A DNA stretch of 64,000 nt from an uncultured Candidatus Saccharibacteria bacterium (lineage in GTDB: Bacteria; Patescibacteriota; JAQUNI01). The DNA is taken from the NCBI GenBank assembly GCA_964555185.1, contig CAZKRD010000002.1, positions 245,268 to 309,267 of the forward strand, written 5' to 3'. Under the pieces are notes generated by a model that made no database searches, was not told the origin of the DNA, and was given only the letters and a program-made list of their open reading frames with translations. This document shows, piece by piece, positions 146 to 13,364 of the stretch. The position numbers and the translations under genes were made by a program. Every line of letters begins with the position of its first letter. Within the stretch, counting starts at the first letter, position 1.

Positions 146-1054
146 TTATATTATTGGCTTTAAAACTAAGTCTCTGCGAAAACGATAAACCGGATGAGAA
201 CGATCAAGGTAAACATCTTCAATATAGAAATGAGGAATAAGATATTCATAAACCTCACCCAAAGGCGGATCTACTTCAATATATTCTCCCAAAACATTAC
301 CCTTAAAATCGCCATGAAAAGGCCAAATTTGCGCGAGAATCTCTTTGGATATCTTATGCTTCTGGGTGTAATTAATAATTTTCTTGCGCAGGTCATGAAG
401 CACGCATCCTCGTTTTTCCCAGCTGTAGACATATTCGAGACATAATTGGTAAAAAATGTAAACTTTATTTTGAAAATTCAAAAAGAATTTAGGATTTTCT
501 TTGTACTTCTTAAAAGCTAAGTCAAAAGTTATCTTTTCTTGAAAATCCATACAAACCATCGCACAAAAATACAATCCGTCTTTTTTGAGAACTTTAAAAA
601 TATCCTGAAAGTTCTTTTTCCAAACAGTCAAGGCCATATTACACTGCGTCTCGTCACTAAAAATAATATCAAATTCATTTTCCTTAAAATACTCACCCAC
701 CTTTTCCCATTTACCGCGAACAAAGCTCTCTTGTCTAGGATCTTCACTCATAAACTCCTTCATTCCTTGATACATAGACTGATTAGAATCTAAGCAGGTA
801 ACTTGCAATTTCAACTTTGCGCAGATATCACGTGTTTCTGGAGTGGCGCCAAGAATCAAAACCTTTAATTTCGGGTTCTTTTTAGCTTGTTTCTTTAAAT
901 GTGCTCTATAAAAAGAAAGTTGATTTTTATTGGGTCGCCAAGGCGGGCCAATCCCTTTCCAGAGATTAACATATTTCGCCCATTCTGGATTGTATGCTTT
1001 ATCTTTTTTATTCATATTAGGATTATAAATTTTGTTATTCTTTCTCATAAACAA
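146..1054 (-). CDS. Class I SAM-dependent methyltransferase-fold protein, paralog 1 of 6 (W-rich N-terminal extension)
   Basis: Shares the motifs found in all six paralogs: N-terminal W..W....RP....YE, motif I-like 'LILGATPETRD', acidic beta2 end 'VTCLDSN', 'FDIIFSD', motif III-like 'VLKKDGLYF'. Overlaps the start of the upstream ATP-grasp gene (1035-1054), so likely translationally coupled. Confidence 0.55.
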   Translation of the reverse strand: MFMRKNNKIYNPNMNKKDKAYNPEWAKYVNLWKGIGPPWRPNKNQLSFYRAHLKKQAKKNPKLKVLILGATPETRDICAKLKLQVTCLDSNQSMYQGMKEFMSEDPRQESFVRGKWEKVGEYFKENEFDIIFSDETQCNMALTVWKKNFQDIFKVLKKDGLYFCAMVCMDFQEKITFDLAFKKYKENPKFFLNFQNKVYIFYQLCLEYVYSWEKRGCVLHDLRKKIINYTQKHKISKEILAQIWPFHGDFKGNVLGEYIEVDPPLGEVYEYLIPHFYIEDVYLDRSHPVYRFRRDLVLKPII

Positions 1055-2369
1055 AAATCATATTCGCGGCCGCGCCGCCGCGGGCAAAGTTAGTAATTAA
1101 AGTATCTGAAAACCTACTCCACAATCCGACAATTTTGTTGTCAACTAAAAAGGGTAAAAAATCCGCTACTTTGAAACTTTCTTCAAGCTTTCCTTCTCGC
1201 CAAAGCAAGGTCTTGTATTTGTTAATCTGAATCTTCTTTTGAATCAGCCAGCCAGTATCAATCTTTTTTAGAATATCCTGCCATTCTTGGGAATTGTAGT
1301 CCTCGCCAAAATGAATGTGTTCGGCGCGGCTGGAAACGCTTTTTTTCAAAATCCAATCCTGCCTATTTTTGACCAAACCATTTTTCACCCGATCATAACC
1401 TGCTCCCTGATAAATAAAGCTTGGCGGGATTAAGCCTTTGATCGTCTTACCTTCTTTTTTGTCTGTAAAATACTGATCAAAGTACCCATTATAAATCAAG
1501 GCAAGCAATGATTTTTCCCCAAACAGAGAGGAAACAAAAGGATTTAGCATTTTAAAAGACCTGTTTTGATAACTTTGGATAAATGCTTCGCGCTTGGAAT
1601 CTACTAGTAAATCATCTAAGTCAAAAAGACGGTAAACAAAATCTATTTTCTTATCTTTAAAATAACATTGATTATTTTTAAAAGTAACATCTTGAATATT
1701 GCCAATAAAAGAATTAGGGGCTTCAGGCTTTAAGTATCGTTCTAAAAAGTATTTTGACTCTGTAATGAAAAAATCATCGCGCTGATCTTTGATTGTTAAA
1801 AGTAAAATGTTATCATTTTGATTTACACTTCCTAATATTTTTTTGACAATCGCCAGATCAGGGAAGGGAGTAAACAAATTATAGTTTTTCTCCAGTTTAG
1901 AAAAATTCAAAAATTTTTGATACAAAACGCCATAATCTTCTAAAATCCCATGGCCATTCGGACAATTGGTATTAATCTCCATTAAATTCATCTTATTACC
2001 CTCAAAAGCAAAATCAAAACGAAGCAAAGGGAAGGGATCAACTAAGTTTAACTTTTGATCAAATTGGTATAAATCTTTTTCTTCTTTAGAAAACCCTAAA
2101 ACCCTTTGAAGCTCTCCTAAATCCGCCTCTTTGTATAAGCGTTTTAGAAATCGAGAAAAAGAAGCCAGATCTTGCTCTAATTTTTCAAAATATTTTTGAG
2201 CAATAAAAAACGGAGTCAAAACGAAAAATTTCTCAAAGCCTTTCAATTGAAAAAGATTATTTTGATCAATATGCTGGTTTATTTTCTGGAAAATTTTCGG
2301 ATAATCTTTTTCTTGCGATCGACAAATCTTAAGAAATTCTTGATCGATTTTTTTGTCTTGATTGATCAT
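1035..2369 (-). CDS. Glutathionylspermidine-synthase-like (circularly permuted ATP-grasp) amidoligase
   Basis: 'PLLRFDFAFEGNKMNLMEINTNCPNGHG' matches the RFDF...(L/M)E(Y/I)N(A/T)DxP signature of the GspS/YgiC/YjfC ATP-grasp family. 444 aa; 4-bp overlap with the upstream hydrolase gene. Confidence 0.5.
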   Translation of the reverse strand: MINQDKKIDQEFLKICRSQEKDYPKIFQKINQHIDQNNLFQLKGFEKFFVLTPFFIAQKYFEKLEQDLASFSRFLKRLYKEADLGELQRVLGFSKEEKDLYQFDQKLNLVDPFPLLRFDFAFEGNKMNLMEINTNCPNGHGILEDYGVLYQKFLNFSKLEKNYNLFTPFPDLAIVKKILGSVNQNDNILLLTIKDQRDDFFITESKYFLERYLKPEAPNSFIGNIQDVTFKNNQCYFKDKKIDFVYRLFDLDDLLVDSKREAFIQSYQNRSFKMLNPFVSSLFGEKSLLALIYNGYFDQYFTDKKEGKTIKGLIPPSFIYQGAGYDRVKNGLVKNRQDWILKKSVSSRAEHIHFGEDYNSQEWQDILKKIDTGWLIQKKIQINKYKTLLWREGKLEESFKVADFLPFLVDNKIVGLWSRFSDTLITNFARGGAAANMIFVYEKE

Positions 2370-3487
2370 TTTGCCTCAATAATTTTTTTAATCCAGCGGC
2401 GGATTTGGTTTAATTCTTTGCCTTGTTCCCTTTCTTCTTTAGTTGGTTTGCGCAAATGGTAATCATGAACATCAACTGCTCCTTCTCTATCGTCAATTTT
2501 ATCAGCTAACAAGCCTTCTTCATCTAAGGCTTTCAAAACAATATTGCCGACTTTTTCATGACCCTTTAATTGACTGAAAAAGCGATAAACCTCGCCGTCA
2601 GGATCCATAGTAACATCATTATCAGTTAAAGAATTGATTGCTGTAATCCTGATATCCTCTGAAAAATCTTTGGCTGTATAGGTTTTAAGTCTCTCAAGCA
2701 TTTCAAAAATATCATCCATCACCTTTTCAGTGTCCATGCCTTTAAAAATTTCAGCATCAGCATGGCCTTGAAAATATTCACGATAAGGCTCCACATTCTC
2801 CTTGATTGTTTCAAGCCAAGATCCCAAAAGAATCGCGTTGTTAATCTTTGCTTCAATTTTGCGAGAAAAATCATTGTCTTCTTTTTTAAGCGCGGCCAAT
2901 GATTCCACCGCGATCCGCGCACCCCAAGAATGACCCATAATATCAATATTCTTAATCTCGTCAATTTTTGAACCCAAAGATTTAAGAAAAGTCAAAACCT
3001 CTCGGTCTGCTGCTTTCCAAGAGAATTTTTCGTCTTTGCCTAAAAACTCTTGTCCTTTTCCTTTAGCGTGTTCAAGTTTTTGAGGACAATGTAAATATTT
3101 CTTCACATCCTCACCTTCAATCCTTAATCCATTGTGCCGCAAAACAACAAAAGCTCTCTTGTCACGCGCAAATTCATCAGCATATTCTGCTTCTTGCATT
3201 GCAAACCCGCCAGCATAACCCGGGGAAAGCACTAGCACATCTTCATAGTCTTTAACTCCTTTAGGTAAATATGCCTTACCTTCTACCACTTCTCCTGTTT
3301 CTGGATTTTGAAATTCAGTCCAAAAACATCTGTAATCCCCTAGCTCGCGTTCCTTATGGTTTTCATCATGATCTTTTTCAAGCTCGAATGTTTTCTCACG
3401 ATTAAAATTCTCTCCAAAGATTTTTTCTAATTCAGAGAAATCTTCTTTTGGTTCTGCTTCTGGTGAAGAAATTCCTTCTTTATTCAT
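2366..3487 (-). CDS. Alpha/beta-fold serine hydrolase
   Basis: Nucleophile elbow G-x-S-x-G in 'IDIMGHSWGARIAVESL'. Downstream D/H candidates are present. Embedded in the paralog operon. Confidence 0.55.
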   Translation of the reverse strand: MNKEGISSPEAEPKEDFSELEKIFGENFNREKTFELEKDHDENHKERELGDYRCFWTEFQNPETGEVVEGKAYLPKGVKDYEDVLVLSPGYAGGFAMQEAEYADEFARDKRAFVVLRHNGLRIEGEDVKKYLHCPQKLEHAKGKGQEFLGKDEKFSWKAADREVLTFLKSLGSKIDEIKNIDIMGHSWGARIAVESLAALKKEDNDFSRKIEAKINNAILLGSWLETIKENVEPYREYFQGHADAEIFKGMDTEKVMDDIFEMLERLKTYTAKDFSEDIRITAINSLTDNDVTMDPDGEVYRFFSQLKGHEKVGNIVLKALDEEGLLADKIDDREGAVDVHDYHLRKPTKEEREQGKELNQIRRWIKKIIEAK

Positions 3488-3500
3488 AATTTTTGTTTAA

Positions 3501-4355
3501 TTATTTCTTTTTTAAAATATAGATTGGATAACCCGGGATGAATTTATCATAATTTTTGCCAAATTCAATTTTAGCTACCTTATAATGGCTTTCATAAAGC
3601 TTAGTCATATCAGAAAGCAAAGGCACGGTCCAGGTTTTATTACTTCTATTATAGCTCTTTTCCATCTTTTGAATAATCCTTTGCAGTTTTTTTCTTTTTT
3701 CGCCCTTTACTTTTTTTAAGTGCAAGTCCATCACTTGATAAATCCCGTTTACCGAAACTTCAAATGTTTTTTGATCTACAGCAGAGCTAAAAAGAAACAA
3801 GGTTTCAAAAACAATATCTGGTTTTGGATCTTTTTGATTTAAATAATGTTCTAGAATCTCATGATCAGGTCGTAAATAGTCTTTGCGGCTGACCGCGGTT
3901 CTTTGAACAAACAAACCATCTTTTTTAAGCAATGATTTTGTTTTCTCTAAAAAAGCATTATGGAGTCTAGATGGCAATTGATTAATTGAACCGTCAGCTA
4001 AGATAATATCAAAATAATTATGCTGAAGCGGAACTGACAGCCAATCACTTCTCGCCCAAACCTCTTTTTCCGCTACCTTGTAATGGCAAAGACTAGTTAG
4101 GGCTAGAATCATTTCTAAACTTAGATCACAAACAACTGTTTTAACCTTATTTTTATAAAACAGATCACGGATTTGGACGGTCGCGCCAAAAACCAAAGCC
4201 CACGCCTCCTTATTCCTGGTCTTCACTCTCTTGATATATTTTTCGTAAATATCCTGTTCATCCTTGGACGGAATGTTGGGCACATCCATATTCTTCCAGT
4301 CTCGAGCAATCTTTTGCCAAGGTTTGGCAAATTTATCTTTAGGCATAGATTTCAA
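3501..4355 (-). CDS. Class I SAM-MTase-fold protein, paralog 2 of 6
   Basis: 'LVFGATVQIRDLF', 'VVCDLS', 'FDIILADGS', 'SLLKKDGLFV'. C-terminal 'PIYILKKK'. N-terminal 'KPWQKIARDWK...IPSKDEQDIYEKY'. Confidence 0.55.
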   Translation of the reverse strand: MKSMPKDKFAKPWQKIARDWKNMDVPNIPSKDEQDIYEKYIKRVKTRNKEAWALVFGATVQIRDLFYKNKVKTVVCDLSLEMILALTSLCHYKVAEKEVWARSDWLSVPLQHNYFDIILADGSINQLPSRLHNAFLEKTKSLLKKDGLFVQRTAVSRKDYLRPDHEILEHYLNQKDPKPDIVFETLFLFSSAVDQKTFEVSVNGIYQVMDLHLKKVKGEKRKKLQRIIQKMEKSYNRSNKTWTVPLLSDMTKLYESHYKVAKIEFGKNYDKFIPGYPIYILKKK

Positions 4356-5335
4356 ATCTTGTTATTAATTACTTTTTTCTTTAAAACATAGATTGGACAG
4401 TGTTTGGTCATAGACTGGTCTTTGGCATAGACCCTATCTTGAATCTCAAAATGTTCTCTCAATTCTTTTTCACTTTCCTTTTTTGATAATACATACCATT
4501 GGTAGTCACCGCACATTGGCAGGAAAACATCTTCGTAAAAATCTAATAGCTCATAAATAATCCTGCTGTATTTGTGGTTTTGAAAACTTTTTTTATTCTC
4601 ATCTCGCAAAACCATTACATGGCTTTGTACGGAGTTTTTAAAATTCTTGTCTGTGCTCGTCTGATAAAATATTTTTATGAACAAAAGATTAGCTGCCAGT
4701 TGGAAACAATACTCACCACTGTCAATTCTCTTCGCTAGCTCAAGAAGAATTTGTTTTATGCTTGTTTTCTTGGTTTCAGGCAAATAGAAATTATGACGAG
4801 TAATCCAAGCGCCTTGATTCTTTAAAACCCTGCTTACTTCCGAAAATAGTTTTTTGTGTTTTGTAGAGGCAACATTACAGATTACTTCATCGCCTAAAAC
4901 TAAATCAAAATATTGATCTGGGAAACCATTAGCAAGCCAGGAACCTTTCTTGAATTCTTCTCTCAAACCATCTGCTCTTGCTAAAAACTCAGTCATTGCT
5001 CTATACATTGCTGGATTAATATCTACACAATAAGCCTTGGCATTATTTAAGATTTCATAAGTATACAAAATCCTGCGCAATTCGGGGGTTGCGCCCATGA
5101 TCATAATCTTGGTATTTTTTTGACCTTTCAAAAAATTCGCGATCAATTCACCGTAATTTTGACATTCATCCAGACTAGGACGATTAGGCACTAAAAGTTT
5201 GCTATACTCCCGACTTATTTTTTGCCAAGTCGCGATTTTATTTTTTTGAACTTCTGATTTTTTCATTTTTAACTTCGTGCTTTTATAGCAAATCTGAATC
5301 AAATCCTTGCGTAAATTTTTAATTATTCTCCGCAA
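4352..5335 (-). CDS. Class I SAM-MTase-fold protein, paralog 3 of 6
   Basis: 'IMIMGATPELRRIL', 'AYCVDIN', 'FDLVLGDEV', 'RVLKNQGAWI'. C-terminal 'PIYVLKKK'. 4-bp overlap with paralog 2. Confidence 0.55.
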   Translation of the reverse strand: MRRIIKNLRKDLIQICYKSTKLKMKKSEVQKNKIATWQKISREYSKLLVPNRPSLDECQNYGELIANFLKGQKNTKIMIMGATPELRRILYTYEILNNAKAYCVDINPAMYRAMTEFLARADGLREEFKKGSWLANGFPDQYFDLVLGDEVICNVASTKHKKLFSEVSRVLKNQGAWITRHNFYLPETKKTSIKQILLELAKRIDSGEYCFQLAANLLFIKIFYQTSTDKNFKNSVQSHVMVLRDENKKSFQNHKYSRIIYELLDFYEDVFLPMCGDYQWYVLSKKESEKELREHFEIQDRVYAKDQSMTKHCPIYVLKKKVINNKI

Positions 5336-6161
5336 AATAGATACGACAAGCTTTGTAAACTCGATGTTCTTTGCTTGTATCTGAAGCTATAATCTTAAAA
5401 TCTTTTTCTAAAACATTCTCAAAATCAACTCGACGCGGAAGGATATAGATACAGCGCTTTGGGATGTAGATGTGATCAGTGATCTCTGATGCCTCTTCTA
5501 GGGAAAGTTCAATCTCTTTTTCCCAAGCCTGCGCCATCAATTCAAAAACCGAAAGCCAATAAGGCCCGTGTTTTTCTTCTTGATAAATATCTGTATTAAA
5601 CATTAAAGCATAAAGAAAATACCATTTCTCAAAATGATTTTTAAAACCCTTGCGGTATTTATCTAAAAAGTCTTTAAGAGTTGTCTTATCCTGAATCTCT
5701 CTTAAGACAATATTTGTAATCAAATACCCGGGACTCTTAAGGTGTCTTTTGATATTAGCGCTAAATTCTCGATGACGGTTAAAGGGAATATTACAATAAA
5801 TATGATCACCGCAAACAATGTCGAATTTCTCTTTTGCTCTAAATTTTAACCAATCACTATAAATAATCTTCTCTTTAGGATTTTTCTTTTTAACAAGTTT
5901 ATTCATTGCCCTAACCATTTCAGGATTAAGATCAACCATTGTTACTTCTAGATTGTATTTGGCAAATAAATCACGCAGTTCTGGGGTTGCCCCGAATAAC
6001 AAAATCTTTGGCTTTTTGCCGATTCTCTTTCTCACTTCTTTTAAAAATTTTTCATAAACTAAAATCTCACCAGGCGATGGCCGCATTGGCGGTTTTAAAT
6101 CTCCCCAAACTTGGGAAAGACTTTTCCAAGAATATGTCTGATTTTGGATTTTATTAGGCAT
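5319..6161 (-). CDS. Class I SAM-MTase-fold protein, paralog 4 of 6
   Basis: 'ILLFGATPELRDLF', 'VTMVDLN', 'FDIVCGDHI', 'RHLKSPGYLI'. N-terminal 'WKSLSQVWGDLKPPMRPSPGEILVYEKF'. Overlaps paralog 3 start. Confidence 0.55.
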   Translation of the reverse strand: MPNKIQNQTYSWKSLSQVWGDLKPPMRPSPGEILVYEKFLKEVRKRIGKKPKILLFGATPELRDLFAKYNLEVTMVDLNPEMVRAMNKLVKKKNPKEKIIYSDWLKFRAKEKFDIVCGDHIYCNIPFNRHREFSANIKRHLKSPGYLITNIVLREIQDKTTLKDFLDKYRKGFKNHFEKWYFLYALMFNTDIYQEEKHGPYWLSVFELMAQAWEKEIELSLEEASEITDHIYIPKRCIYILPRRVDFENVLEKDFKIIASDTSKEHRVYKACRIYFAENN

Positions 6162-6232
6162 ATTTTCAAACCCACTATTGTAAATTATATCAAAATTTTA
6201 GCTAAAAAGAAAGGATATTTCAAAACCATTTA

Positions 6233-7048
6233 TCAAATCTTCTTCAAAAAATAAACCGGTTCGAATTTGCAGTATTCAAACTTTTGAACATAAGAAATAG
6301 AAACAATCTTGAAATGTGTTTTAGCTAATTTCTCAAATTCATCTTTTGGAGGCAGAGTTGAAACGCCGGCAAAATGTTTGTATTTATTCAAAATTCCAAA
6401 ATCAGACCTTATTTCCCCATCTTCTTTTAATTTTTTTACTTTTTCTAAAAATCTCTGCCAAGAAAACTGATATGTTTTAGAATCCCACATGGTTGCTGCG
6501 GCTTGCACTAAAAAATCCTGTTCTGTTTTAATTTTCCCCATCTTGTATTTTTCAAAAACATTGACTATATCTTCACAAACCCAGCTATCTGGAAATTTAA
6601 CAATTAAGTGGGTAGAAACAAAACCATTGGGTTTTAATAGACTATGTAATTTTTTTAACATCTTACCCCAATCCCGCCAGAAAAGTACAGTCAAGACATC
6701 ATCACCAGCAATTAAATCATAATAATTATCTGGCAAGGGTAATTCTCGCCAGTCAGCACGTACAAATGTCTCCTTCTCTATATCTCCTCGAACGAGCAAG
6801 CTCATTGCTTGGTACATCAAAAGAGAATGATCAACACAAGTTACCTCAAATTTGTATTTATGAGCCAGTGTGCGTAATTCTGGGGTAGAACCTAAAATCA
6901 AAATTCGCGGATTCTTCCTCCGCGCTATTTTTTTGAAATGTTTTTCATAAATTTCTTCGTGTTCGGGCAACGGCCGCACGGTCGTATCTTTCCATTTTTC
7001 CCAATCTTGGGCAATCTTGCGAATGTTTTTGGTTAAAATATAAGGCAT
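6233..7048 (-). CDS. Class I SAM-MTase-fold protein, paralog 5 of 6
   Basis: 'ILILGSTPELRTLA', 'VTCVDHS', 'YDLIAGDDV', 'SLLKPNGFVS'. C-terminal 'PVYFLKKI'. Confidence 0.55.
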   Translation of the reverse strand: MPYILTKNIRKIAQDWEKWKDTTVRPLPEHEEIYEKHFKKIARRKNPRILILGSTPELRTLAHKYKFEVTCVDHSLLMYQAMSLLVRGDIEKETFVRADWRELPLPDNYYDLIAGDDVLTVLFWRDWGKMLKKLHSLLKPNGFVSTHLIVKFPDSWVCEDIVNVFEKYKMGKIKTEQDFLVQAAATMWDSKTYQFSWQRFLEKVKKLKEDGEIRSDFGILNKYKHFAGVSTLPPKDEFEKLAKTHFKIVSISYVQKFEYCKFEPVYFLKKI

Positions 7049-7060
7049 ATATTATAAACT

Positions 7061-7190
7061 GTCATTGCGAGGAGCGACCCCGAGCCCGCCGAGGGGAAGC
7101 GACGAAGCAATCTCCTTGAAAAAGGTATTGCTGCTCTACGAGATTGCTTTGGTCACCTCACCCCGAAGGGCAGGCTCCCTCGCAATGACA
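7061..7190. repeat. MITE-like palindromic element (family A), terminal inverted repeats GTCATTGCGAGGAGCGAC ... CCTCGCAATGACA with an internal hairpin (GCAATCTC/GAGATTGC)
   Basis: Seen directly in the sequence. Related copies lie at 22768-22921 and 34044-34149. GC-rich in an AT-rich background. Sits between paralogs 6 and 5. Confidence 0.7.
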
Positions 7191-7346
7191 ACGGGATTGT
7201 TATTTTCTCTCCAATTGCATAACATAACCCCAGTTATAACAGGTGGAGTTACGCGGTTCAGGTGACTTATCTTTAACTCTAAAATATTTTAAAAGCATCC
7301 ATTTGTCTTTTTCCCAATTAAAATAGGTCCATTCTTTATCCATCGG

Positions 7347-8039
7347 CTAAATCTCTTTTGCTTTTTTATAGGCCCTTTTTACTCTCGGATCTTTAATGTA
7401 TTTTTTTAATTCCGCGAAAAAAAGATTAGTGCCGATTTTGTAATTCTTGTTTAAATTCGAATAAAAAGTGCCCCTAGTCCAAAAATCTTCAAAATTCTGC
7501 ACGCTGTAACCTTTTTCTAAATACTCTTTTAAAAGCACATTAAAATTATGGGTTTTGCTCTCTGGGAAGTCAGCATAGAAGCGGGTCAGAAAATAGCCAT
7601 TAAACTTTAAGAGTCTATGTGCTTTTTTAAAAAACACAGGCTGGTTAGCTCTTAATACATTTTCCAAGATATAGTCGCCAAACAGAACATCATATTCGTT
7701 TTCTCTTAAAGGTGCGGAGAGCCAATTGCTTTTCACCCAAATCTCTTTATCTGTTTCCTTTTTATTGTGCATTAATTCTGTCATCGCGATAATCATCTCT
7801 AAATTAGAATCAACAATTGTTACTTTTACTTTAGGATAGCACGCCAGAAGATCACGGATTTCTGGTGTCGCGCCAAAGACCAAAGCCTTAGGACTCTTTT
7901 TCCCTTTAATTGCTTCTTTTAAATATTTTTCATAATCCTGAATGTTTTTGCGGCAAGGCCTGGTGGGATGCTTTAGTTTTTTCCACATCTTAGCCCATTC
8001 CTTCCATGGTTCAATGAATTTTTCTCGCTTTTTGGACAT
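7347..8039 (-). CDS. Class I SAM-MTase-fold protein, paralog 6 of 6 (shorter; lacks the C-terminal P-x-Y-x-LKK segment)
   Basis: 'ALVFGATPEIRDLL', 'VTIVDSN', 'YDVLFGDYI', 'RLLKFNGYFL'. N-terminal 'EPWKEWAKMWKKLKHPTRP...YEKY'. 230 aa versus 271-327 aa for the others. Confidence 0.5.
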   Translation of the reverse strand: MSKKREKFIEPWKEWAKMWKKLKHPTRPCRKNIQDYEKYLKEAIKGKKSPKALVFGATPEIRDLLACYPKVKVTIVDSNLEMIIAMTELMHNKKETDKEIWVKSNWLSAPLRENEYDVLFGDYILENVLRANQPVFFKKAHRLLKFNGYFLTRFYADFPESKTHNFNVLLKEYLEKGYSVQNFEDFWTRGTFYSNLNKNYKIGTNLFFAELKKYIKDPRVKRAYKKAKEI

Positions 8040-8932: not shown

Positions 8933-9196
8933 TTAAGATTCCTCTTGTATCTCAAATTTTGTCCCTTGCACACAGTAACTAATTAATCTTTGCCCTCTTG
9001 GAACCCCTTTGCGGCGTATTTTTATCCGAAGAGACAAATAGCCAGGAATATATCGAAATTCTTCTATTCTCACTGGAGGTTCAGCGGGATCAGAACAAAA
9101 AGGTATAACCACTACCAAACAATTCTTTAACGCTTTATTTAATCTGTCTGCCTCCGCTTGAGTAATCTCTTTTATCCCAAAAACCTGATTAGACAT
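8933..9196 (-). CDS. Hypothetical 87-aa protein
   Basis: Strong RBS AAGGAGGA 5 nt before the ATG. No recognisable motif. Lies between the Cys-rich peptide gene and the subtilase. Confidence 0.45.
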   Translation of the reverse strand: MSNQVFGIKEITQAEADRLNKALKNCLVVVIPFCSDPAEPPVRIEEFRYIPGYLSLRIKIRRKGVPRGQRLISYCVQGTKFEIQEES

Positions 9197-9349: not shown

Positions 9350-10627
9350 CTAGGGAGCGATCGGCAAACCAAAACCAGTGGCTGTGTCGTCACCAGTAGT
9401 CCAAATCTCTGCTGCTATGCCGTGCAAATAATTCCGAGTGTTATTGGCTGACCCTTGCCAGAGCTTAGCAGCCAGACCTGAAACATGCGGGGTGGCCATT
9501 GAAGTTCCAGACATATAGGCATAGCAACCATTTTTATAAGCAGACTCCACTGAAACTCCTGGAGTTGCTAGTTCCACTTCCCTTTCTTCGACTAGATAAT
9601 CGCCATCATTGACTCCGCGTGAACTCCAATCCGGAACTGCTTCACTGGAATTGATCGCACCAACAGCAACCGCCTTGTAATAAGCAGCCGGATAATTAAT
9701 ACTGTCGTAAGTTGGTCCATCATTGCCAGCCGCAACCACAACTAATACTCCTTTACTTACTGCATAATCAATGGCCGCAAGCTCTTGAGAATCAGGATCA
9801 TCACCGCCATAACTCATTGAAATAATATTTGCACCATGGTCAGCAGCATAACGAATACCAGCAGCAGAATCATCACCATAACAAGAACCACGCCGGTCAC
9901 AGACCTTAACTGTCATTAATTTTGCTTCTGGCGCTACACCATAAATCCCTAAACCATCTTCGCCGCTATTAGCTAAAATTGTGCCCGAAACATGAGTGCC
10001 ATGGCCGTGCGCGTCTTCACAACTCTTTCTATCTGGTTTGAAGTGAGTGACCTTACTCACACAATCCGTAAGATTACCCATCAAGTCCAAATGATCTTGA
10101 TCCACACCTGTGTCTAAAACCGCTACTGTAACTCCATTACCTCCTTCCCCGCCATTCACTTTATTGATACCCCATGGCTTTTGATCGCCGGGCAAACAAG
10201 TTCTATCTGGTTCAGGATCAGGATCAGAAGGACAATCTTGGGGACAACGCTTGGGCTCATTACCCTGACAGACGCTATCACCACAGACAGGCTTACCAGT
10301 GATCTTGCGGATGCCTACCTGTCTAACCTCTACCCCTAAATCCCTCAAAGATTGAACTTGCTTTTTGGTCAACATTGTTGAAAACGCTCCTGGAAATTCT
10401 TGATTGACACCAAAAAGCGTTTTCAAAACTGGATTCTCTGAACTAATATAATGAGGCTCTGGTGTTAATTCCCAACTATCACCAATCACTGGCGAGTTTG
10501 CAGGTGCTATTGCTTCTTCTTTGGCCTCCTCTGATGCTGGGATCAGGAAGCCCTTTACTTGAATTGCTCCAGAAAAAACTAAAATCCCTGCTACTAAGAT
10601 TCCTAATCCAATTTTAATTTTCTTCAT
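9350..10627 (-). CDS. Secreted subtilisin-like serine protease (S8 family)
   Basis: Catalytic triad motifs in order: 'VAVLDTGVD' (Asp), 'HGHGTHVSGT' (His), 'GTSMATPHVSG' (Ser). N-terminal signal peptide 'MKKIKIGLGILVAGILVFSGA'. Cys-rich insert 'CGDSVCQGNEPKRCPQDCPSD'. Confidence 0.85.
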   Translation of the reverse strand: MKKIKIGLGILVAGILVFSGAIQVKGFLIPASEEAKEEAIAPANSPVIGDSWELTPEPHYISSENPVLKTLFGVNQEFPGAFSTMLTKKQVQSLRDLGVEVRQVGIRKITGKPVCGDSVCQGNEPKRCPQDCPSDPDPEPDRTCLPGDQKPWGINKVNGGEGGNGVTVAVLDTGVDQDHLDLMGNLTDCVSKVTHFKPDRKSCEDAHGHGTHVSGTILANSGEDGLGIYGVAPEAKLMTVKVCDRRGSCYGDDSAAGIRYAADHGANIISMSYGGDDPDSQELAAIDYAVSKGVLVVVAAGNDGPTYDSINYPAAYYKAVAVGAINSSEAVPDWSSRGVNDGDYLVEEREVELATPGVSVESAYKNGCYAYMSGTSMATPHVSGLAAKLWQGSANNTRNYLHGIAAEIWTTGDDTATGFGLPIAP

Positions 10628-12448: not shown

Positions 12449-13213
12449 TTATTGCTCTACTTGCTGCAATTTGCTTGCCGAAAAATCATCAATCTTCTTT
12501 GAGATCTTGGCCGCGTCCTCCTCTCTTCCCAATTTGTTGTAGAGCAACTCCTGATTATGCAAAACCAAAAGTTGAATCGTTGATATTTCCATATCTCTCA
12601 AGCAATCCTCAGAAGACTCAACAGGGCCCCAAAAAGCAAAAAGTCTATCAATACAATCAAGGCATTGGGTAAAATATCCTAGAGCCTCCTCTTCGTGACC
12701 TAGATCGAGATTATAGAAAGCAAGGTTACTGTAAACTATCATTAAACCTTCTTGCTCATCTGGGGTTTTTGTCTCTGTGGCTTCCAGAATCTTCTGGGCT
12801 TTTTGCCAATAAATCACTGCCTTTTGATAATACTCTTGGGCTATGTATAAATCAGCAAGATCAATATAGAGGCATGGATCTTCTATCCCATTATTCTGAT
12901 TAATATCAAGGGCTTTTTGATAATACTCTAAAGACTCTTTATAATCCCCCTGCTCTTGATAAACAAAAGCTTTAATATGTAATGCCTTGGTATTTTCAGG
13001 TTCCCAATCGAAAATCCTTTCGCAACAATATAATGCATCTTGATAGTTTCCCGTACGAGTATATTCACGAGCTCTAGATGTAAGACGACTAATCAGGTTT
13101 CTCCTTCGAATGGCTTCTTTTCTATTTAAAGCTAAGTGTCCAACAAGGAAAAGTAATAAAACAATTACAACTAACGGCCACTTTAAAAAGCTCCGCTTCT
13201 TACTGTCTGACAT
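12449..13213 (-). CDS. TPR-repeat protein with an N-terminal membrane anchor
   Basis: TM 'WPLVVIVLLLFLVGHLAL'. Repeated TPR-like W/Y-x-x-A-L-x-I motifs ('YYQKALDINQNN', 'AVIYWQKAQKIL', 'ALYCCERIFDWEP'). Confidence 0.6.
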   Translation of the reverse strand: MSDSKKRSFLKWPLVVIVLLLFLVGHLALNRKEAIRRRNLISRLTSRAREYTRTGNYQDALYCCERIFDWEPENTKALHIKAFVYQEQGDYKESLEYYQKALDINQNNGIEDPCLYIDLADLYIAQEYYQKAVIYWQKAQKILEATETKTPDEQEGLMIVYSNLAFYNLDLGHEEEALGYFTQCLDCIDRLFAFWGPVESSEDCLRDMEISTIQLLVLHNQELLYNKLGREEDAAKISKKIDDFSASKLQQVEQ

Positions 13214-13290
13214 AGCCTAAAACCCCCTTTCTTCTAATAAAGAGTTTTGTATTGAGGAATAAAAAAAGAACAAACAACTTAAGCCAAAAG

Positions 13291-13364
13291 TACGCTCAGG
13301 AGGATTCGAACCTCCGACCTCAAGCTCCGGAAGCTTGCGCTCTATCCAGCTGAGCTATGAGCGC
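13291..13364 (-). tRNA. tRNA-Arg (anticodon CCG)
   Basis: Manual fold: acceptor GCGCUCA/UGAGCGU, D-arm GCUC-AGCUGGAUA-GAGC, anticodon stem CAAGC/GCUUG with loop UUCCGGA, T-arm GGAGG-UUCGAAU-CCUCC, discriminator A. Confidence 0.85.

Follow-up and report, generated by a model that had tools for sequence, protein, structure and literature searches.

The window studied here is a stretch of 64,000 nucleotides from an uncultured Candidatus Saccharibacteria bacterium (contig CAZKRD010000002.1 of assembly GCA_964555185.1, positions 245,268 to 309,267 of the forward strand), analysed as locus L009 within a 355-kb scaffold. Its minus strand carries eight tightly spaced open reading frames (ORFs) between positions 146 and 8039. 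An earlier note on this DNA singled out two of them as a split counterpart of the E. coli GspSA enzyme, namely a circularly permuted ATP-grasp amidoligase of the GspS/YgiC/YjfC group and, coupled to it, a serine alpha/beta hydrolase that was taken for a non-orthologous replacement of the CHAP amidase. Both ORFs are present as described (Table 1). The coupling is also borne out by direct reading of the sequence, as the stop codon of the hydrolase gene and the start codon of the ligase gene share an ATGA, an arrangement consistent with translational coupling. When compared with the orthologues of locus L005, which are 83-84% identical, the ratio of nonsynonymous to synonymous substitutions (dN/dS) amounts to ~0.075 in the ligase gene and ~0.08 in the hydrolase gene. 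Such low values indicate that both are functional genes under purifying selection. The pair is embedded in an array of six methyltransferase paralogues (146-8039), and the operon extends past the window start. Those relatives that carry a name come from metagenome-assembled genomes of Patescibacteria (Doudnabacteria, Parcubacteria, Moraniibacteriota, Falkowbacteria and Moranbacteria).

The ligase matches the Pfam family GSP_synth (PF03738) with 35.7 bits, above the cut-off of 29.3. This is its sole Pfam match and a partial one, ligase residues 117-298 aligning to profile positions 89-266 of 371. No NCBIfam match was found, and the Pfam scan revealed no CHAP domain and hence no fused amidase of the GspSA type. 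The two signatures quoted in the earlier note are RFDF, at residues 117-120, and MEINTNCP, at residues 130-137. Among 70 relatives of the ligase (16-83% identity), residues R117, D119, E131, N133, K286, K342, G355, W363, Q377 and R419 are invariant; for all of these but G355 and W363, we infer specific roles of the Mg/ATP-binding type. Loss of the ATP- and Mg-binding residues had been named beforehand as grounds for abandoning the assignment, and these residues are kept. The same 70 relatives match CP_ATPgrasp_2 (53 proteins), GSP_synth (35) and CP_ATPgrasp_1 (24). Close relatives are rare: we found four proteins at least 51% identical among 5.8 billion clusters, and HMMER, run exhaustively over 1.8 billion representatives, returned 5 proteins at E <= 1e-30 and 634 distant relatives at E <= 0.001, those listed being mostly about 400-470 amino acids (aa) long.

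The AlphaFold2 model of the ligase built with the 70 sequences reached a predicted local distance difference test score (pLDDT) of 93.8 and a predicted template modelling score (pTM) of 0.92, while a run with four homologues only gave a pLDDT of 44.6. The former model has the circularly permuted ATP-grasp fold. Foldseek comparison with the PDB yielded E values of 1e-11 to 1e-18 across glutathione and homoglutathione synthetases, Cp1B, YgiC, YjfC, 3n6x, GspS and trypanothione synthetase. PDB searches with the sequence gave nothing significant, with Cp1B as the sole marginal profile match (E 0.038). The ligase is no nearer to GspS than to YgiC, Cp1B or the eukaryotic glutathione synthetases. Judging from the alignment and the predicted fold, it forms a clade of its own among the circularly permuted ATP-grasp amidoligases and retains the catalytic residues. 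The assignment to the amidoligase group therefore stands, on the strength of the GSP_synth match, the predicted fold and these residues. However, YgiC and YjfC have no glutathionylspermidine synthetase activity (PMC11762307) and join peptides to spermidine instead (PMC11762307; PMC12568646). Thus, the substrate of the ligase cannot be deduced from family membership.

The hydrolase matches Pfam DUF900 (PF05990) with 24.0 bits against a cut-off of 20.5, as do 14 of the 15 members of its family. The function of DUF900 is not known (PMC11878206). In an alignment of 15 sequences, S187 (in the nucleophile elbow GHSWG) and H341 are invariant and D289 is nearly so, which gives the canonical Ser-Asp-His order and agrees with the earlier description of the gene as a serine alpha/beta hydrolase. 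R117-H-N119 and Cys134 are also conserved. Sequence searches of the PDB found no significant match, and neither Pfam nor NCBIfam profiles identified a BioH-type or methylesterase family. Weak matches below the cut-offs point to the lipase/esterase families DUF676, LCAT, PGAP1 and PAF-AH. On these sequence criteria, the protein is a DUF900-like Ser-Asp-His alpha/beta hydrolase. The family comprises two types: H, with 43-84% identity within the type, and H', which is confined to the ligase-linked loci L002 and L030. The two H' proteins share 30% identity with each other and 21-27% with type H.

The six flanking genes are, by their sequence profiles, class I S-adenosylmethionine (SAM) methyltransferases (MT1 to MT6), and five of them pass a Pfam cut-off (Methyltransf_11/25). 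Pairwise identity among the six is 23-39%. Their motif I has the atypical form G-[A/S]-T-P-E-x-R and falls outside the regions matched by Pfam and PDB entries; D89 (the acidic residue after beta-2), W116, D134 and G160 are invariant in the alignment. For every paralogue, orthology to genes of other genomes is 1:1, which indicates that the array is old and its members specialised. For instance, the MT2 orthologue of L010 is 72% identical, and MT1 is the paralogue that comes after the hydrolase or the ligase in other lineages, its orthologues in L002, L006 and L017 (52-56% identity) lying directly 3' of the hydrolase. The best PDB profile matches of the family are PH0226 and phosphoethanolamine N-methyltransferases (PMTs; E 2e-8 to 4e-7), and they cover the generic core only. 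A weak match to LahSB, a C-terminal carboxyl methyltransferase, was also recorded (E 0.024). The relatives with a name are exclusively from Patescibacteria, in arrays of 1-6 copies. A word-indexed search with the alignment retrieved 20 proteins, none named beyond generic methyltransferase, and a cluster look-up returned no names.

MT6 has an in-frame TAG after codon 230. The reading frame resumes 3' of the TAG for 47 codons (7199-7342; P-M-DKEWTY...), which match the C-terminus of the intact 284-aa orthologue of L005. The TAG is either a recent nonsense mutation, the mark of a pseudogene or an assembly error. The dN/dS 5' of the TAG is ~0.09.

Table 1. Coordinates of the features at the locus, in window positions
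Feature	Position	Strand	Description
58-aa ORF, first 40 codons	121-1	-	Conserved; L009 coordinates mapped onto the window
MT1	146-1054	-	Likely start ATG at 1015; Pfam Methyltransf_11 and Methyltransf_25; motif I G-A-T-P-E-x-R
Ligase, 444 aa	1035-2369	-	Circularly permuted ATP-grasp carboxylate-amine ligase
ATGA overlap	2366-2369	-	Hydrolase stop and ligase start
Hydrolase, 373 aa	2366-3487	-	DUF900-like alpha/beta hydrolase
MT2	3501-4355	-	Pfam methyltransferase matches weak, below cut-offs; 294.8 bits against the family profile (L009 8015-8869)
MT3	4352-5335	-	Gene call starts at 5266; paralogous methyltransferase
MT4	5319-6161	-	Paralogous methyltransferase
MT5	6233-7048	-	Paralogous methyltransferase
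MT6	7347-8039; with remainder 7199-8039	-	Paralogous methyltransferase with in-frame TAG

We compiled 13 independent genomic neighbourhoods of the hydrolase family. Directly adjacent to the hydrolase, all 13 carry at least one methyltransferase of the G-A-T-P-E type. The ligase clade is found in four (the window, L005, L001-4 and L030), and eight are without it (L006, L017, L019, L011, L013, L016, L018 and L020), the first five of which span 8-21 kb each. At L010, a CP_ATPgrasp_2 paralogue stands 3' of the main hydrolase in place of the GSP_synth-like ligase. In L021 and L024, methyltransferases of the family are present with no hydrolase. The occurrence is nested: the methyltransferase may be alone, the hydrolase is always with a methyltransferase, and this ligase clade is always with both. 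The constant partner of the hydrolase is the methyltransferase, not the ligase.

Where the three genes occur together, their order varies. It is hydrolase-ligase-MT1 in the window, ligase-H'-MT1 in L001-4 (ligase 51% and hydrolase 21% identical to those of the window, the latter with a pairwise E of 1e-9) and H'-methyltransferase-ligase in L030 (ligase 26% identical). Gene overlaps are also found in other trios, of 20 nt in L002 and 8 nt in L030. Finding the same trio in three gene orders at deep divergence excludes chance adjacency. All three enzymes of this module are intact, and their genes are packed or overlapping. The module consists of class I SAM methyltransferases with the variant motif, of which there are one to six, a DUF900-like hydrolase and, in some lineages, the ATP-grasp ligase. 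We regard it as a previously undescribed, three-part module restricted to Patescibacteria, the ligase being a rare clade of a known superfamily.

Several further observations concern these loci. A second, very divergent trio, at L030 4083-7254, lies on Scaffold_28 of the metagenome assembly that also yielded the window. The methyltransferase array of L010 includes a second hydrolase paralogue (2336-3379), which shares 32% identity with the hydrolase of the window. At L005, two methyltransferase genes and a CP_ATPgrasp_2 gene are fragmented (5370-7096 and 12952-13313) and the ligase and hydrolase genes are intact; the split genes indicate that the cluster is decaying in some lineages. Finally, a Cys_Met_Meta_PP gene (pyridoxal-phosphate-dependent Cys/Met metabolism) adjoins methyltransferase arrays in two lineages (L006 4866-5927 and L024 10893-12263) and may be linked to SAM/homocysteine turnover or to a sulfur-containing substrate.

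By analogy with known pathways, we tentatively favour the view that the flagged pair makes up two thirds of a methyltransferase-hydrolase-ligase operon module that may act as a system for masking, unmasking and amidating carboxylates. The three enzymes would share one small, probably peptide-like metabolite as substrate, acting on it through its carboxyl groups. One or more methyltransferases would mask carboxylates as methyl esters, the hydrolase would be the matching methylesterase, and the ligase would convert a carboxylate, either free from the outset or freed by the hydrolase, to an acyl phosphate before joining it to an amine. Since a methyltransferase, a serine hydrolase and an ATP-grasp enzyme are each able to act on a carboxyl group, this is the most economical unifying idea, and carboxyl protection and deprotection would also explain the nested occurrence. 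A number of points weigh on the other side. The methyltransferases could be N- as well as carboxyl O-methyltransferases, their best PDB profile matches being phosphoethanolamine N-methyltransferases (E ~1e-8). The BioC model (TIGR02072) is matched by MT5 only, with 21.1 bits against a cut-off of 185, which places none of the six in that family. For the hydrolase, no significant resemblance to BioH, to CysE or to a solved structure was detected, and six methyltransferases are many for a protecting and deprotecting role. Moreover, some of the ligase-free loci are short contigs (4.6-6 kb), and a ligase could sit elsewhere in those genomes.

The PMT likeness would also fit an N-methylation pathway, although we consider this unlikely. 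In such a pathway, the methyltransferases would methylate an amine stepwise to a quaternary amine or a methylated polyamine, the hydrolase would free or trim a substrate with an amine or alcohol group, for example from a scavenged host lipid or peptide, and the ligase would conjugate the methylated amine to a carboxylate. Several specialised paralogues suit successive methylations, the weak matches of the hydrolase are to lipase/esterase families, and Patescibacteria rely on scavenging. However, the likeness is limited to the generic Rossmann core and the catalytic His of PMTs is not conserved, while the lipase-like matches all lie below the cut-offs. Furthermore, the pathway gives no specific reason why the methyltransferases need a hydrolase.

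The split GspSA-like system of the earlier note appears rather improbable. Here, the ligase would make an amide conjugate (for instance of a peptide or thiol with a polyamine), the serine hydrolase would be the cognate amidase and the methyltransferases would be incidental. The adjacency that this predicts was recovered from the side of the ligase, as three diverged ligase lineages each adjoin a hydrolase of the same superfamily. It was not recovered from the side of the hydrolase, which occurs broadly without the ligase: its orthologues in the eight ligase-free neighbourhoods are 45-53% identical, and methyltransferases are always there, including on the five longer stretches. This is the distribution that had been named in advance as counting against a reverse-reaction amidase, and the proposed replacement of the CHAP amidase is therefore not supported. 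The census also suggests that genomes without the ligase retain an active hydrolase under selection. A methyltransferase accompanies the ligase just as consistently as a hydrolase does, and the lack of glutathionylspermidine synthetase activity in YgiC and YjfC means that the family does not imply the substrate (PMC11762307). In addition, the distant ligase relatives P0018 and P0019 adjoin AMP-binding/CapK-like genes and have neither a hydrolase nor a methyltransferase as a neighbour.

Modification of a protein or ribosomal peptide is a still more doubtful explanation. The ligase would then add residues or an amine to a carboxylate at the C-terminus or on a side chain, as TTL and RimK do, the methyltransferases would methyl-esterify or N-methylate the peptide, and the hydrolase would erase the mark, as PME-1 does opposite LCMT-1, or remove a leader. 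Several features would be in keeping with this role: the cluster or its surroundings include small conserved ORFs (58 and 69 aa) as well as an S8 peptidase, a 1970-aa surface protein is encoded 5' of the ligase in L001, and there is the LahSB match. However, the 58-aa ORF encodes a Lys-rich, helical product with no core-peptide-like or acidic C-terminus and is tied to a GCS2-like gene rather than to the trio. There is no conserved small ORF in the minimal trios (L002 and L030) or beside the hydrolase-methyltransferase pairs of L013 and L019, and the proteins closest to the ligase in structure are ligases of small molecules. Lastly, wider synteny common to several loci (PPDK_N, PRPP synthetase and Bac_transf) reflects common descent and might suggest that the genes are neighbours only because these genomes are compact and related, but a lack of any functional link is scarcely credible given trios that recur at 21-51% identity with three arrangements of the genes and in unrelated genomic settings, and a hydrolase-methyltransferase pair set in differing housekeeping contexts.

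The genes beyond the window start (L009 12249-16372) add to the favoured scheme of carboxyl methylation and amidation a possible larger setting. The 58-aa ORF that straddles the window start is translationally coupled to a gene for a 475-aa GCS2/plant-GCL-like protein (TIGR01436, E 1e-7, far below the cut-off). It is followed by a 457-aa CP_ATPgrasp_2 ligase and then by a class I GATase-like protein with GICLGHQ and RHPE motifs. Thus, a single cluster of the window genome encodes three carboxylate-amine ligases. These additional genes are absent from the minimal trios of L002 and L030. The downstream ligases and the GATase suggest an oligo-amide product that would be multiply methylated and made independently of non-ribosomal peptide synthetases (NRPSs). 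A LysW-type carrier role for the 58-aa ORF was considered and dropped, as its product has no acidic C-terminus. Ergothioneine biosynthesis, which would combine a GCL-like ligase, an amidotransferase and a methyltransferase, was discarded for want of an EgtB-like gene.

Patescibacteria are generally viewed as biosynthetically poor. A bolder proposal, which we hold to be improbable at present, is that the GCL-like protein, the two ATP-grasp ligases with the glutathione synthetase fold, the GATase-like protein, the hydrolase and up to six dedicated methyltransferases with a motif of a new type form a lineage-restricted, NRPS-independent pathway of Patescibacteria. Its product would be a multiply methylated pseudopeptide of the gamma-glutamyl type, serving either as a cofactor similar to glutathione or trypanothione or as an effector between organisms. 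The hydrolase-methyltransferase pair would then represent a new and widespread system to write and erase carboxyl methylation in these symbionts.

On the 5' side of the operon, the minus strand carries an 87-aa ORF (8933-9196) with AAGGAGG as a strong ribosome-binding site; a terminator-like hairpin (8912-8891) comes after it. In the ~850 nt that then lead to MT6, there is neither a convincing gene nor a match to Rfam. The gene at 9350-10627 encodes an S8 subtilase whose N-terminal part includes a signal-like segment. Upstream of the operon, the Rfam search detected neither riboswitches nor other RNA elements, and promoter-like sites were not enriched (30 observed against 29.3 in shuffled sequence). 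We also rejected a role as a defence system, since PADLOC assigned no system and returned generic methyltransferase-domain matches only.

If the carboxyl masking and amidation scheme is correct, it would provide a first function for three uncharacterised families restricted to Patescibacteria, namely the ligase clade, the DUF900-like hydrolase and the expanded family of methyltransferases with a non-canonical SAM motif. It would also mean that symbionts with reduced genomes devote about 20 kb to one small-molecule pathway. At a more practical level, a GspS-like label combined with gene adjacency would spread glutathionylspermidine synthetase/amidase annotations that our comparison does not support.

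Compared with YgiC/YjfC, GspS and trypanothione synthetase, the ligase shows only 10-15% identity and no phmmer match. It has neither a CHAP amidase domain nor an NCBIfam equivalogue, and its partners are a serine hydrolase and methyltransferases. The eukaryotic glutathione and homoglutathione synthetases and the fungal E-64 ligase Cp1B are its top Foldseek matches (E 1e-17 to 1e-18, template modelling scores of 0.63-0.70). In addition, the plant-GCL-like protein downstream of the ligase in the window genome recalls the two-step pathway to gamma-glutamyl peptides. However, identity to the glutathione synthetases and Cp1B is ~14-16%, the minimal trios are without a GCL-like gene, and gamma-Glu-Cys or epoxysuccinate substrates are unsupported.

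Iyer, Abhiman, Burroughs and Aravind (Mol Biosyst 2009) reportedly described amidoligase-plus-peptidase neighbourhoods with GCS2, circularly permuted ATP-grasp and class I GATase proteins. The genes for the GCS2-like, CP_ATPgrasp_2 and GATase proteins downstream of the trio resemble such predicted systems for making peptides or metabolites; to our knowledge, neither a G-A-T-P-E methyltransferase array nor a DUF900-like hydrolase was described there as a partner. The logic of protection and deprotection by methyl esters is established for BioC/BioH. As in BioC/BioH, and in CysG/CysE (BelI/BelR) with CysD, the locus described here clusters a methyltransferase and an alpha/beta hydrolase with ATP-dependent carboxylate-activating ligases. 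The analogy is one of function only, as our module has a DUF900-like hydrolase and up to six methyltransferase paralogues, and its host is a member of the Patescibacteria rather than an actinomycete. In cystargolide/belactosin biosynthesis, CysG, a SAM methyltransferase, converts one carboxylate of 3-isopropylmalate to its methyl ester before amidation, and CysE is an alpha/beta-hydrolase methylesterase homologue. Three ATP-dependent carboxylate-activating enzymes, among them the ATP-grasp ligase CysD, have been proposed to form the two amide bonds and the cyclic ester (PMC10776993).

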